NCBI RefSeq assembly: GCF_003790525.1
Contig: NZ_CP033635.1
Source: Escherichia coli
GTDB taxonomy: Bacteria; Pseudomonadota; Gammaproteobacteria; Enterobacterales; Enterobacteriaceae
Length of the DNA: 64,000 bases
Reading direction: 5' to 3' (one strand)
In this document: positions 36,001 through 42,000 of the stretch, piece by piece
How the letters are laid out: the number at the start of each line of letters is the position of its first letter
Position numbering within the stretch: position 1 is the first letter of the stretch
Made by a program: the position numbers

Positions 36001-39000
36001 ATCAATTAATGAACTTTATGAATTTTATCTGCTTTAAAATTAGTTGGTTAATAATAATCTCAATAATTCAACTTAATTTGAAAATTGGAATATCCATCAC
36101 ATAACGACATGTCGCAGCAATTTAATCCATATTTATGCTATTTCCGACCTGACACCTGTGTGAATTGTTCACGTATTTTTTCACTATGTCTTACTCTCTG
36201 CTGGCAGGAAAAAATGGTTACTATCAATACGGAATCTGCTTTAACGCCACGTTCTTTGCGGGATACGCGGCGTATGAATATGTTTGTTTCGGTAGCTGCT
36301 GCGGTCGCAGGATTGTTATTTGGTCTTGATATCGGCGTAATCGCCGGAGCGTTGCCGTTCATTACCGATCACTTTGTACTGACCAGTCGTTTGCAGGAAT
36401 GGGTGGTCAGTAGCATGATGCTCGGCGCAGCAATTGGTGCGCTGTTTAATGGTTGGCTGTCGTTCCGCCTGGGGCGTAAATACAGCCTGATGGCGGGGGC
36501 CATCCTGTTTGTACTCGGTTCGATAGGGTCCGCTTTTGCGACCAGCGTAGAGATGTTAATCGCCGCTCGTGTGGTGTTGGGCATTGCTGTCGGGATCGCG
36601 TCTTACACCGCTCCTCTGTATCTTTCTGAAATGGCAAGTGAAAACGTTCGCGGTAAGATGATCAGCATGTACCAGTTGATGGTCACTCTCGGCATCGTGC
36701 TGGCGTTTTTATCCGATACAGCGTTCAGTTATAGCGGTAACTGGCGCGCAATGTTGGGGGTTCTTGCTTTACCAGCAGTTCTGCTGATTATTCTGGTGGT
36801 CTTCCTGCCAAATAGCCCGCGCTGGCTGGCGGAAAAGGGGCGTCATATTGAGGCGGAAGAAGTATTGCGTATGCTGCGCGATACGTCGGAAAAAGCGCGA
36901 GAAGAACTCAACGAAATTCGTGAAAGCCTGAAGTTAAAACAGGGCGGTTGGGCACTGTTTAAGATCAACCGTAACGTCCGTCGTGCTGTGTTTCTCGGTA
37001 TGTTGTTGCAGGCGATGCAGCAGTTTACCGGTATGAACATCATCATGTACTACGCGCCGCGTATCTTCAAAATGGCGGGCTTTACGACCACAGAACAACA
37101 GATGATTGCGACTCTGGTCGTGGGGCTGACCTTTATGTTCGCCACCTTCATTGCGGTCTTTACGGTAGATAAAGCAGGGCGTAAACCGGCTCTGAAAATT
37201 GGTTTCAGCGTGATGGCGTTAGGCACTCTGGTGCTGGGTTACTGCCTGATGCAGTTTGATAACGGTACGGCTTCCAGTGGCTTGTCCTGGCTCTCTGTTG
37301 GCATGACGATGATGTGTATTGCCGGTTATGCGATGAGCGCCGCGCCAGTGGTGTGGATCCTGTGCTCTGAGATTCAGCCGCTGAAATGCCGCGATTTTGG
37401 CATCACCTGTTCGACGACGACAAACTGGGTGTCGAATATGATTATCGGCGCGACCTTCCTGACACTGCTTGATAGCATTGGCGCTGCCGGTACGTTCTGG
37501 CTCTACACTGCGTTGAACATTGCGTTTGTGGGCATTACTTTCTGGCTCATTCCGGAAACCAAAAATGTCACGCTGGAACATATCGAGCGCAAACTGATGG
37601 CAGGCGAAAAGTTGAGAAATATCGGCGTCTGATTTCACGGGCCGGATGTGCTGTACATCCGGCCCTTTTTTCGTTAATAGAGATTAGGCACCTGGCCGTT
37701 GAGGCGTTTGTCTCGTTCCTTATTCAGCCTTGTTGCGGTAACACACATCAGGAGAGAGGAATGAAAACAATTGGTTTGCTGGGAGGAATGAGCTGGGAAT
37801 CCACTATTCCTTACTATCGTCTGATAAATGAAGGCATTAAACAGCGGCTTGGTGGGCTTCACTCTGCGCAAGTGCTGCTACATAGCGTCGATTTTCATGA
37901 AATAGAAGAGTGCCAGCGTCGCGGTGAGTGGGACAAAACCGGGGATATTCTGGCTGAGGCGGCGCTTGGCTTACAGCGGGCGGGCGCAGAAGGCATTGTG
38001 TTATGTACCAATACGATGCACAAAGTGGCGGATGCCATTGAGTCTCGTTGCTCTCTGCCTTTCTTACATATAGCGGATGCCACTGGACGTGCAATTACCG
38101 GGGCAGGAATGACTCGTGTGGCGCTGCTGGGTACGCGTTACACCATGGAACAGGATTTTTATCGCGGGCGGCTGACGGAACAATTTTCCATCAACTGTCT
38201 TATTCCTGAAGCGGATGAACGGGCGAAAATTAATCAGATTATTTTTGAAGAACTGTGTCTGGGGCAATTTACCGAAGCGTCACGCGCTTATTATGCGCAA
38301 GTGATTGCTCGCCTTGCAGAACAGGGCGCACAGGGCGTAATGCCGATCAGTTAAGGATCAGTTGACCGATCCAGTGGCTGTGTAAGAATCCGGAAACGCT
38401 CACTTGTTTCCGGATTTTTTTATGCACATTGGACAGGCTCTTGATCTGGTATCCCGTTACGATTCTCTGCGTAACCCACTGACTTCTCTGGGGGATTACC
38501 TCGACCCCGAACTCATCTCTCGTTGCCTTGCCGAATCAGGTACTGTAACGCTACGCAAGCGCCGTCTTCCCCTCGAAATGATGGTCTGGTGTATTGTTGG
38601 CATGGCGCTTGAGCGTAAAGAACCTCTTCACCAGATTGTGAATCGCCTGGACATCATGCTGCCGGGCAATCGCCCCTTCGTTGCCCCCAGTGCCGTTATT
38701 CAGGCCCGCCAGCGCCTGGGAAGTGAGGCTGTCCGCCGCGTGTTCACGAAAACAGCGCAGCTCTGGCATAACGCCACGCCGCATCCGCACTGGTGCGGCC
38801 TGACCCTGCTGGCCATCGATGGTGTGTTCTGGCGCACACCGGATACACCAGAGAACGATGCAGCCTTCCCCCGCCAGACACATGCCGGGAACCCGGCGCT
38901 CTACCCGCAGGTCAAAATGGTCTGCCAGATGGAACTGACCAGCCATCTGCTGACGGCTGCAGCCTTCGGCACGATGAAGAACAGCGAAAATGAGCTTGCT

Positions 39001-42000
39001 GAGCAACTTATAGAACAAACCGGCGATAACACTCTGACGTTAATGGATAAAGGTTATTACTCACTGGGACTGTTAAATGCCTGGAGCCTGGCGGGAGAAC
39101 ACCGCCACTGGATGATACCTCTCAGAAAGGGAGCGCAATATGAAGAGATCAGAAAACTGGGTAAAGGCGATCATCTGGTGAAGCTGAAAACCAGCCCGCA
39201 GGCACGAAAAAAGTGGCCGGGACTGGGAAATGAAGTGACAGCCCGCCTGCTGACCGTGACGCGCAAAGGAAAAGTCTGCCATCTGCTGACGTCGATGACG
39301 GACGCCATGCGCTTCCCCGGAGGAGAAATGGCGGAACTGTACAGTCATCGCTGGGAAATCGAACTGGGATACAGGGAGATAAAACAGACGATGCAACTGA
39401 GCAGGCTGACGCTGAGAAGTAAAAAACCGGAGCTTGTGGAGCAAGAGCTGTGGGGTGTCTTACTGGCTTATAATCTGGTGAGATATCAGATGATTAAAAT
39501 GGCGGAACATCTGAAAGGTTACTGGCCGAATCAACTGAGTTTCTCAGAATCATGCGGAATGGTGATGAGAATGCTGATGACATTGCAGGGCGCTTCACCG
39601 GGACGTATACCGGAGCTGATGCGCGATCTTGCAAGTATGGGACAACTTGTGAAATTACCGACAAGAAGGGAAAGGGCCTTCCCGAGAGTGGTAAAGGAGA
39701 GGCCCTGGAAATACCCCACAGCCCCGAAAAAGAGCCAGTCAGTTGCTTAACTGACTGGCATTAGCGCACAGGGCGTCATTTTTGGCTGCACAGAAATTGG
39801 TTTACTGGTGCCAGAAGAGCGCAGTGTTCTGCCTGTGTTTGATACCGCGGCGATCCATGCCGAGGATGCTGTCGCTTTTATGCTGTCGTAGCTGACGACA
39901 AAATAGCGTCAAGAGAAGTGACCAGTTTCGGTAATCCCGCTTGTAAATGCTCACTAAACGCCTGCACCAGCGCTGATGACGGGCGGTGCAGGGGGCGGAT
40001 CAGGCTGACAGTGAACGGAACCGCAATGCTGAACCGCCGCACCACTAAACCGCTTGCCGCATAATCCAGTGCGGTGAGTGGGTTAACTACCGAAACGCCT
40101 ACCCCCGCCCGTACCATTGCGCAGACTGACGCGGCGCTGTGGGTTTCTACGATCATGCGTCGTTTAACCTGATTCTCAGTAAACAATTGATCCAGGAACT
40201 GGCGATAGCTGTCAGTACGGGAAAGGCTGATGTAGTTTTCACCGTGAAAATCATCCGGCGTTAATACCTTTTTTACCGCCAGCGGATGGCCCGGAGGTAA
40301 CACACACACTTCATCTAAAGAGAGTAATTCGGTACGTTCTGTTCCCGCAGGCGTATGGAGTGTCTCAGTGAGTCCTAAATCATGACGCTGGGCCGAGAGC
40401 CACTCTTCAAGTAGCGGTGATTCCTGGGGCACGATGTTTAAGCTGACATCGGGATAACGTGCCAGAAAGGGTTGCAGGAGCTGCGGTAAAAAAGATTGCG
40501 AAAAGACCGGCAGGCAGGCAATAGACAGTTCTCCCTGGCGAAACTCGCGCAGACTTTCTGCGGCACTGACAATGCGATCCAGTCCGTACCAGGATCGTTG
40601 CACTTCTTCAAACAGACGCAGTCCTTGCACGGTAGGATGTAATCGTCCACGTATGCGCTCAAACAATTTCAGCCCGATAACCTTCTCAAAGCGCGCCAGT
40701 TCGCGGCTGACGGTTGGCTGTGAGGTGTGTAGCAGGTGTGCCGCCTCAGTCAGGCTTCCGGCGGTCATTACCGCATGAAAAATTTCAATATGACGTAAGT
40801 TAACGGCGGCCATTAGCGCTCTCTCGCAATCCGGTAATCCATATCATTTTTGCATAGACTCGACATAAATCGATATTTTTTATTCTTTTTATGATGTGGC
40901 GTAATCATAAAAAAGCACTTATCTGGAGTTTGTTATGCCACATTCACTGTTCAGCACTGATACCGATCTCACCGCCGAAAATCTGCTGCGTTTGCCCGCA
41001 GAATTTGGCTGCCCGGTGTGGGTCTACGATGCGCAAATTATTCGTCGGCAGATTGCAGCGCTGAAACAGTTTGATGTGGTGCGCTTTGCACAGAAAGCCT
41101 GTTCCAATATTCATATTTTGCGCTTAATGCGTGAGCAGGGCGTGAAAGTGGATTCCGTCTCGTTAGGCGAAATAGAGCGTGCACTGGCGGCGGGTTACAA
41201 TCCGCAAACGCACCCCGATGATATTGTTTTTACGGCAGATGTTATCGATCAGGCGACGCTTGAACGCGTCAGTGAATTGCAAATTCCGGTGAATGCGGGT
41301 TCTGTTGATATGCTCGACCAACTGGGTCAGGTTTCGCCAGGGCATCGGGTATGGCTGCGTGTTAATCCGGGGTTTGGTCACGGGCATAGCCAAAAAACCA
41401 ATACCGGTGGCGAAAACAGCAAGCACGGTATCTGGTACACCGATCTGCCCGCCGCACTGGACGTGATACAACGTCATCATCTACAGCTGGTCGGCATTCA
41501 CATGCACATTGGTTCTGGCGTTGATTATGCCCATCTGGAACAGGTATGTGGTGCTATGGTGCGTCAGGTCCTCGAATTCGGTCAGGATTTACAGGCTATT
41601 TCTGCGGGCGGTGGGCTTTCTATTCCTTATCAACAGGGTGAAGAGGCGGTTGATACCGAACATTATTATGGTCTGTGGAATGCCGCGCGTGAGCAAATCG
41701 CCCGCCATTTGGGCCATCCTGTGAAACTGGAAATTGAACCGGGTCGCTTTCTGGTAGCGCAGGCTGGCGTATTAATTACTCAAGTGCGGAGCGTCAAACA
41801 AATGGGTAGCCGCCACTTTGTGCTGGTTGATGCCGGGTTCAACGATCTGATGCGCCCGGCAATGTACGGTAGTTACCACCATATCAGTGCCCTGACAGCT
41901 GATGGTCGTTCTCTGGAATACGCGCCAACGGTGGAAACCGTCGTCGCCGGGCCGTTATGTGAATCGGGCGATGTCTTTACCCAGCAAGAAGGGGGAAATG

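Follow-up and report, generated by a model that had tools for sequence, protein, structure and literature searches.

ygeA split by a complete IS4 copy, a lineage marker in phylogroup F Escherichia coli

In the 64-kb window (the whole stretch of DNA that was analyzed), the amino acid racemase gene ygeA is present in two pieces. The 5' fragment (37761..38337, plus strand) covers the first 192 codons plus the initial base of codon 193. The 3' fragment (39764..39891, plus strand) encodes, after the duplication, residues 193-230, including Cys197, and ends with a TAG at 39889-39891. Both fragments are separated by a complete IS4 of 1426 bp (38338..39763, plus strand), whose transposase gene points in the same direction as ygeA. 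The element is bordered by two copies of the 12-bp target-site duplication GCGCACAGGGCG (38326..38337 and 39764..39775), which proved exact on re-inspection and occurs only at these two places when both strands of the window are checked. The ygeA 3' fragment overlaps by 14 bp with the 3' end of lysR, which is convergent to it (39878-40813, minus strand).

The left terminal inverted repeat of the element, TAATGCCGATCAGTTAAG (38338..38355, plus strand), and the reverse complement of the right one, TAATGCCAGTCAGTTAAG (39746..39763, minus strand), match at 16 of 18 positions, i.e. with two mismatches; the first bases of IS4 are TAATGCC and the last GGCATTA. This terminal-repeat pattern has no further occurrence in the window, the chance expectation being 0.04. 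Members of the IS4 subgroup measure 1400-1650 bp and carry the end signature -AATR--------WTW (PMC2266710). The 1426 bp between the duplication copies fall within this range, and the left repeat shows the signature, its positions 2-5 being AATG and its positions 14-16 TTA. Compared with the insG copy of K-12 MG1655, the element is 99.6% identical, differing in 5 of 1426 nt and in three amino acids; it is 100% identical to the copy of strain CFSAN061771, and other IS4 copies show 1-6 nt differences. The NCBIfam IS4 model matches with 304.6 bits (cut-off 115). The element in ygeA is a standard IS4 (IS4 family, IS4 subgroup), in line with the preliminary description, which had recognized a complete IS4 with imperfect inverted repeats, an intact transposase open reading frame (ORF) and an exact 12-bp duplication. 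Searches of Rfam at gathering thresholds, covering 36000-42000 and the whole window, revealed no RNA family in or beside IS4; elsewhere in the window, OmrA, OmrB, and one tRNA were matched.

The transposase gene (38422..39750, plus strand) is open from the ATG at 38422 to the stop codon at 39748-39750 and encodes 442 aa, and both ends of the element are likewise intact. PGAP, the automatic annotation of RefSeq, places the start at the TTG at 38404, yielding 448 aa. The product shows the Pfam domains Nterm_IS4 (E = 7.6e-33) and DDE_Tnp_1 (E = 5.9e-32) and, at residues 307-321, a complete YREK motif (Y307-x2-R-x3-E-x6-K321). D133, D209, and E314 are candidate catalytic residues, assigned by motif spacing only; they are without an anchor in a solved structure because a sequence search of the transposase against the PDB gave no match at E <= 1. 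Residues A304, E305, and L326 of the window copy are G, D, and R in K-12. E305, located two residues ahead of the YREK tyrosine, is also D in strain GN03139.

Both ends of IS4 contain RNA structures that may shield the transposase gene. At the left end, a hairpin with a 14-bp stem followed by seven T (38384..38425, plus strand) ends just ahead of the transposase ATG. Its folding energy is -23.5 kcal/mol (z = -5.8), and none of 200 shuffled sequences folded as well. This hairpin is predicted to act as an intrinsic terminator, halting transcripts that come in from ygeA. At the right end, a perfect hairpin with an 11-bp stem (39734..39759, minus strand) overlaps both the transposase stop codon and the right-hand inverted repeat. 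Its folding energy is -20.7 kcal/mol (z = -4.1). On the minus strand TCTTTTT comes after it, which gives it the appearance of a terminator directed against transcripts entering from the lysR side. A promoter-like site (38362..38389, plus strand), consisting of TTGACC, a 16-nt spacer, and TG-AAGAAT, is a candidate promoter of the transposase by consensus match only, with its predicted start inside the left hairpin; in the region overall, promoter-like sites are no commoner than in shuffled sequence.

Target-site duplications of 10-13 bp are published for the IS4 subgroup (PMC2266710), and 11-14 bp were found at eight other IS4 sites, so the 12 bp observed in ygeA lie within the known range, as had been proposed. 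A T follows directly 3' of both GCGCACAGGGCG copies, which by sequence alone would also permit a duplication of 13 bp. This alternative was ruled out, and 12 bp taken as the correct length, because all other examined IS4 copies begin with that T (TAATGCC). The eight other sites follow a common pattern, which the ygeA site fits: an A-run and a T-run enclose a core rich in G+C. When a target matrix was derived from them (8 sites, equal to 16 half-sites, with ygeA left out), the ygeA site ranked 13 of 62,562 positions; its left half-site is weak (3.4 bits), while the right one reaches 7.4 bits. IS4 is clearly site-selective. As a side result of the eight-site matrix, IS4 prefers terminator-like sites, of which ygeA happens to hold a good imitation. 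Such a preference is consistent with the older literature on IS4.

Removal of IS4 together with one GCGCACAGGGCG copy, i.e. joining 37761-38337 to 39776-39891, restores an uninterrupted YgeA of 230 aa, bearing out the earlier claim that the gene reads through once the element is taken out. The reconstructed protein matches the NCBIfam equivalog NF007569 over residues 1-230 of 230 with 512.5 bits (cut-off 417), a match obtained only after this in-silico excision. It aligns end to end with the PDB entries 5HQT and 5ELL, and the nearest IS4-free genomes encode an intact YgeA of exactly this sequence; the split allele shows no secondary decay. In the split gene, the 5' reading frame continues into IS4 up to a TAA at 38352-38354. 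The resulting 197-aa product ends with ...AQGVMPIS: 193 native residues precede four foreign ones (MPIS), and the final 37 native residues are lost. Thr83 and Cys197 are the catalytic residues of YgeA, and a C197S variant was reported to be inactive (PMC12838360). Cys197 is encoded 3' of the break, 1.4 kb downstream, and the two catalytic residues no longer occur in one polypeptide. The locus is, judged by its sequence, a pseudogene of the YgeA / EcL-DER family without the status of a functional member. Since the 197-aa remnant does not contain the catalytic Cys197, the racemase activity is very likely lost in the source strain. In the RefSeq annotation of carriers, an IS4 transposase lies between two pieces of ygeA marked as pseudogenes; in GN03139, the 5' fragment is labeled 'ygeA amino acid racemase, incomplete, missing C-terminus', and the label of the 3' fragment is 'aspartate/glutamate racemase, incomplete, missing N-terminus'.

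Both ygeA::IS4 junctions were found in 40 of 5,426 complete E. coli genomes (0.7%), always with IS4 at the same position and in the same orientation, whereas 5,382 of the 5,426 genomes possess the uninterrupted site. A second intact ygeA copy, which would have weakened the case for inactivation, was found in none of these genomes: the empty-site probe gave at most two matches per genome, and by its counts the carriers hold only the two halves. The preliminary description had further assumed that K-12 lacks IS4 at this locus and that the insertion marks the strain background. Both assumptions agree with the survey, as the single K-12 copy adjoins nanX, K-12 is not among the 40 carriers, and the carriers with a published type belong to ST354, ST648, and ST1485, all of phylogroup F (types are documented for 4 of the 40). 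These are GN03139 (ST354), EM10-18-28 (ST648), and CFSAN061771 and M160133 (both ST1485), with junctions, orientation, and duplication identical to those of the window. Other sources yielded no additional types: PMC9685555, which deals with ST648, names none of the 40 carriers, and elppa5 and elppa9 appear without a sequence type in PMC9062692. In the accessible part of PMC12859213, ST354 is listed among the strains with no explicit tie to EC17CM2. Approximately half of all genomes contain IS4, with 5,494 IS4 matches found in total, and each carrier shows 2-8 matches to probes containing IS4 sequence, which suggests several IS4 copies per carrier genome. Among the matches listed in a full-text search (15 of 240), no paper contained ygeA, and of the ygeA::IS4 allele only the RefSeq annotation was found. 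The insertion is genuine, but as a lineage marker it is ordinary and already annotated in public genomes.

Sequence comparisons among carriers bear on the origin of the insertion. GN03139 is 99.992% identical to the entire 64-kb window, from which it differs by three bases, one of them within IS4 (at 39336), and by two single-base indels. The ST1485 genomes deviate from the window beyond 41522, with an IS1-associated rearrangement upstream of araE. CFSAN061771 shows no difference over 35926-41521 (5.6 kb, IS4 included) and 42 SNPs past 41522, and the nearest IS4-free genomes differ from the window throughout the ygeA region. The identity of an ST1485 genome and the window over 5.6 kb points away from repeated hits and toward a single ancestral ygeA::IS4 insertion, which would have been either inherited or spread by homologous recombination among ST354, ST648, and ST1485.

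Taken as a whole, the locus is almost certainly the product of a single transposition of IS4 into ygeA, with very probable loss of the racemase and inheritance or recombination within phylogroup F. In the proposed course of events, one transposition would have placed the full-length element after codon 193. The site was probably chosen for its likeness to the preferred IS4 target, in which a G+C-rich core of approximately 12 bp is flanked by an A-run and a T-run. By analogy with IS10 and IS50, the transposase is expected to cut the target strands 12 bp apart, and repair of the gaps would yield the GCGCACAGGGCG duplication. The insertion separates Cys197 from Thr83, so that the YgeA racemase, whose broad substrate range comprises homoserine and other amino acids, is very probably absent from the source strain. 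The hairpins inside both IS4 ends probably keep outside transcription away from the transposase gene; if they do, expression of the ygeA 3' fragment would be unlikely as well. The event presumably occurred once in an ancestor within phylogroup F, to be passed on later by descent to ST354, ST648, and ST1485 or distributed by homologous recombination.

A hotspot in ygeA that was hit by IS4 repeatedly and independently, leaving the carriers unlinked by descent, would be in keeping with the site selectivity of the element, with the spread of the carriers over at least three sequence types, and with the recurrence of other IS4 sites among the sampled genomes (bamD|raiA in two, glcA|gspK in two). 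Nevertheless, such a history is very unlikely. Position and orientation coincide in all 40 carriers, and ST1485 equals the window across IS4 plus 4.2 kb of flanks, although differences of 1-6 nt are seen in other IS4 copies. In the ygeA flanks, the IS4-free genomes nearest to the window deviate from it, and only 0.7% of genomes carry the insertion, though about half hold the element. That the structure reflects a misassembly or chimera is hardly conceivable: short-read assemblies frequently fail at IS elements, but identical junctions recur in 40 complete genomes that many laboratories produced independently and that stem from many hosts, and misassembly does not generate a target-site duplication that is both exact and as long as expected.

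The function of ygeA might also persist via the 197-aa truncated protein, a second copy, or a paralogue, given that the truncation removes no more than 37 C-terminal residues, that the 3' fragment is undamaged in the genome, and that E. coli possesses other racemases. This prospect is extremely slim, for the truncated product lacks the very cysteine whose replacement in C197S was reported to abolish activity (PMC12838360), no carrier has an uninterrupted ygeA site (at most two probe matches in any genome), and the 3' fragment lies behind IS4 without start codon context or promoter. The loss of ygeA could also have been adaptive, e.g. through changed handling of D/L-homoserine or altered biofilm behavior, instead of a neutral hitch-hiker, and have become fixed in this branch of phylogroup F (ST354, ST648, ST1485), which is successful and often multidrug-resistant. 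Such a selective explanation appears improbable. Sharing of the allele by at least three sequence types and the lack of secondary decay are compatible with it, as is the report, cited in PMC12838360, of effects of YgeA deficiency on growth and on the formation of biofilms.

A subset of phylogroup F, ST354, ST648, and ST1485 strains among them, can be recognized cleanly by the ygeA::IS4 junction, either by PCR or in silico. Carriers are predicted to be devoid of the YgeA homoserine/broad-spectrum racemase, which could bear on studies of D-amino acid metabolism or biofilms. The practical value is modest, and nothing new is learned about transposition itself.

The closest relative of the element is the K-12 insG copy, the type element of the IS4 family, which likewise comprises 1426 bp, with the same 18-nt ends and the same 442-aa transposase frame. 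It is also flanked by a 12-bp duplication, CAGAACCAAGAT, but resides as the single copy of that genome in the intergenic region beside nanX, whereas the window copy interrupts ygeA. Intact YgeA (EcL-DER; PDB 5ELL, 5ELM, 5HQT) is a PLP-independent racemase of the Asp/Glu family. The reconstructed protein has 230 aa, with Thr83 and Cys197 present, and differs from the crystallized sequence in one residue; in contrast, the window gene is split after codon 193 and gives no single product with both catalytic residues. IS10, IS50, and IS4 are alike in encoding a single-ORF DDE/YREK transposase and in producing a duplication of approximately one helical turn (PMC2266710). As in IS10 and IS50, GATC sites and RNA structure are found at the transposase-proximal end of IS4. 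In IS10 and IS50 these features have known roles, including protection against outside transcription, whereas the corresponding regulatory functions of IS4 are predicted here by analogy. IS4 differs from both elements in its duplication (11-14 bp versus 9 bp), in its ends, which begin with TAATG instead of CT, and in its target preference, a palindromic pattern much stricter than that of IS10 and IS50.

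The duplication GCGCACAGGGCG at 38326-38337 and 39764-39775, described earlier as exact, was confirmed base for base by reading 37700-40500 and by a repeat search, and it occurs only these two times on both strands of the 64-kb window. The 1426 bp between the copies start with TAATGCC, end with GGCATTA and carry terminal inverted repeats of 18 nt (38338-38355 and 39746-39763) with 16 of 18 positions matching. A search for the repeat pattern with up to three mismatches allowed returns just these two sites in the window, where 0.04 are expected by chance. A 13-bp duplication, with a T after both repeat copies, was rejected; since every other fetched IS4 copy also starts with TAATGCC, 12 bp is the correct length. 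The IS4 subgroup is characterized by a size of 1400-1650 bp, the ends -AATR--------WTW and direct repeats of 10-13 bp (PMC2266710). End signature, size and duplication length of the copy in ygeA (ygeA::IS4, 38338-39763) all agree with this description, so that the 12-bp duplication was rightly said to fit the range known for IS4.

The transposase frame runs from an ATG at 38422 to a stop at 39748-39750 (442 aa); the RefSeq PGAP annotation starts at an upstream TTG (38404), yielding 448 aa. Pfam places Nterm_IS4 (E = 7.6e-33) and DDE_Tnp_1 (E = 5.9e-32) in the protein, the NCBIfam IS4 model gives it 304.6 bits (cut-off 115), and its residues 307-321 form the complete family signature Y-x2-R-x3-E-x6-K. 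D133, D209 and E314 are candidate catalytic residues, with a spacing that fits the published D(60-110)D(100-150)E (PMC2266710); a search with the transposase sequence yielded no solved structure near enough to confirm them. Compared with the K-12 MG1655 copy, ygeA::IS4 differs by five substitutions in 1426 nt, resulting in three amino-acid changes. Every testable defining feature of IS4 is present, and the element is IS4 itself, a complete and apparently intact copy, as the preliminary description had it. Position 39336 (IS4 position 999) is polymorphic among the carriers, i.e. the 40 complete E. coli genomes with both ygeA::IS4 junctions: it is A (transposase E305) in the window and in CFSAN061771, and T (D305) in GN03139 and also in the K-12 copy. 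Residue 305 lies two before the YREK tyrosine, and the polymorphism may stem from gene conversion between IS4 copies.

Joining 37761-38337 to 39776-39891 restores a 230-aa protein, in line with the earlier reading that ygeA reads through once IS4 is removed. The reconstructed YgeA matches the NCBIfam racemase equivalog along its whole length with 512.5 bits (cut-off 417). Its alignment with the crystallized E. coli enzyme (PDB 5HQT, 5ELL, 5ELM) runs end to end and shows one substitution, and the nearest insertion-free genomes encode exactly this protein as their intact YgeA (WP_000848654.1), so that no additional decay has affected the gene after the split. The break follows the first base of codon 193, and the truncated product encoded consists of 193 native residues plus MPIS, with the stop at 38352-38354. 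YgeA is a broad-spectrum racemase whose in vivo role is that of a homoserine racemase; its catalytic pair is Thr83 and Cys197, and the C197S variant is devoid of racemase activity (PMC12838360; kinetic values in PMC8142540). The codon of Cys197 resides in the 3' fragment, 1.4 kb downstream, which makes loss of YgeA function through the insertion very probable. The preliminary description had stated inactivation outright; the separation of Cys197 from the product adds to that claim, and the loss itself is a deduction from sequence. The family definition applies only after in-silico excision of IS4. As it stands, ygeA does not encode both catalytic residues in one polypeptide and is thus a pseudogene. 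The neighboring lysR is not hit, with its stop codon 114 nt past the insertion and a 14-bp overlap with the ygeA stop region.

Of 5,426 complete E. coli genomes, exactly 40 have a full-length match to a 300-bp probe for the left junction, and likewise exactly 40 to one for the right junction. An 8-kb araE-to-galR probe covers the same 40 at 100%, and the next genomes, at 82% coverage, are devoid of the element. A probe for the uninterrupted site has some match in 5,423 genomes, and in 5,382 of them the match spans the whole probe; of the other 41, whose site is disrupted, 40 are the IS4 carriers. A second intact ygeA, which would speak against inactivation, was sought with the uninterrupted-site probe and found in no carrier, as judged from the empty-site coverage and from at most two matches in any genome. 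IS4 sequence of some kind is present in about half of the genomes (2,686), and the median number of matches per genome is one. The single K-12 copy adjoins nanX and the 40 carriers include no K-12 strain, which bears out the expectation that K-12 lacks IS4 at ygeA. The insertion is already annotated in 40 public genomes, RefSeq placing an IS4 transposase at the locus between an incomplete ygeA and an incomplete aspartate/glutamate racemase; the best 15 of 240 full-text matches contained no published discussion of it.

Sequence types are documented for four carriers. GN03139, 99.992% identical to the window across all 64 kb, is ST354 (PMC13322237), EM10-18-28 is ST648 (PMC8350485), and CFSAN061771 and M160133 are ST1485, phylogroup F (PMC9630279; PMC5646399). 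Going by these four, an assignment of the carriers to a sub-branch of phylogroup F is supported, and the insertion does mark the strain background as proposed. Window and CFSAN061771 show no difference over 35926-41521 (5.6 kb including all of IS4), and the adjoining 41522-44487, a stretch running through lysA and galR into the start of aas, has 42 SNPs. This abrupt switch is the mark of a recombination boundary within lysA. SCU-172 and CREC-544, the closest genomes free of IS4, differ from the window region-wide (e.g. at 37239, 37242, 37513, 38279, 40010 and 40016), and other IS4 copies differ from ygeA::IS4 by 1-6 nt. Since position, orientation, IS allele and a private flanking haplotype are all shared, the sequences argue for one ancestral insertion, followed by inheritance or by between-lineage transfer in a recombined segment. 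Selection for loss of ygeA in this branch is highly improbable. The insertion, correctly read in the preliminary description, is ordinary biology and not surprising: ygeA::IS4 is a useful lineage marker and a predicted metabolic knockout.

At ~4579-26270 the window carries an almost complete ETT2 type III secretion island; the ETT2 remnant of K-12 is far less complete. The annotation of the near-identical GN03139 places a few pseudogenes in the island of the window: a SpaN/EivJ fragment (11981-12211) and a frameshifted YscQ gene (12816-13803). A second gene-splitting insertion sequence, IS2 (26828-28158, minus strand, 1331 bp, 5-bp duplication CAAAC), interrupts yqeK. CFSAN061771 (L001) harbors at 1794-3723 an IS1A and a truncated sigma-54-dependent regulator gene directly upstream of araE, adjacent to xdhABC; the window's ETT2-yqe-kdu block is therefore deleted or rearranged in the ST1485 lineage. 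A glycoside hydrolase family 15 gene (2334-3987) is broken up into two ORFs that overlap (2334-3008 and 2923-3987) and is hence frameshifted; in the window it has two extra bases relative to GN03139 (2492, 2959) and is not intact even so. It is followed by a small GhoT/OrtT-family toxin gene (4054-4233). The small RNAs OmrA and OmrB (43449-43530, 43646-43733) occupy the galR-aas spacer, as expected, and a DUF4139-domain gene between lplT and tas (47205-48860) appears accessory, since only some of the genomes listed have it named under the match.

IS4 copies from twelve more genomes and K-12 yielded eight further distinct insertion sites, with duplications of 11, 11, 12, 12, 12, 12, 12 and 14 bp. 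Their common architecture is a G+C-rich duplicated core bordered, after three or four bases, by an A-run to its left and a T-run to its right, in agreement with the AAA-N20-TTT consensus reportedly proposed for IS4 in the 1980s. Several are perfect hairpins resembling bidirectional terminators between convergent genes, e.g. bamD|raiA and feaB|tynA. A position-weight matrix from the 16 half-sites of these eight sites was scanned over the window minus IS4; among 62,562 positions, this small matrix puts the true ygeA site at rank 13 and an 11-bp version of it, shifted by 1 nt, at rank 5. The target, gcagaacagg GCGCACAGGGCG tcatttttgg, has a strong right and a weak left half. Given the high rank, this site within a gene is a good mimic of the preferred target. 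Four sampled genomes (L008, L010, L011, L012) share identical immediate IS4 flanks, tgtgcacagaaaacccc[CAGCTAGGCTG]ggggttccggaaagctttcagc, in three wider contexts (glcA|gspK; beside ISEcp1; beside an Rpn gene and IS200C); this IS4 may lie inside a small repeated or mobile sequence.

Both ends of ygeA::IS4 carry predicted control features. On the left, a run of seven T connects a hairpin with a 14-bp stem (38384-38419; -23.5 kcal/mol, z = -5.8) to the transposase ATG, and a promoter-like site (38362-38389) has its predicted transcription start inside this hairpin. A transcript from this site would consequently lack the left hairpin arm, and read-in transcripts from ygeA would form the full left terminator. 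On the right, a hairpin with a perfect 11-bp stem overlaps the inverted repeat; on the minus strand TCTTTTT comes after this hairpin, which would hence face transcription arriving from lysR. We infer that these features would together insulate the transposase gene from outside transcription and would keep the ygeA 3' fragment from being expressed. The left end has three GATC (Dam methylation) sites in its first 34 bp (38345-38371; IS4 positions 8, 19 and 31), one of them abutting the promoter-like -35 hexamer, and the right inverted repeat is free of GATC. This left-end pattern resembles the Dam control of IS10 and IS50.
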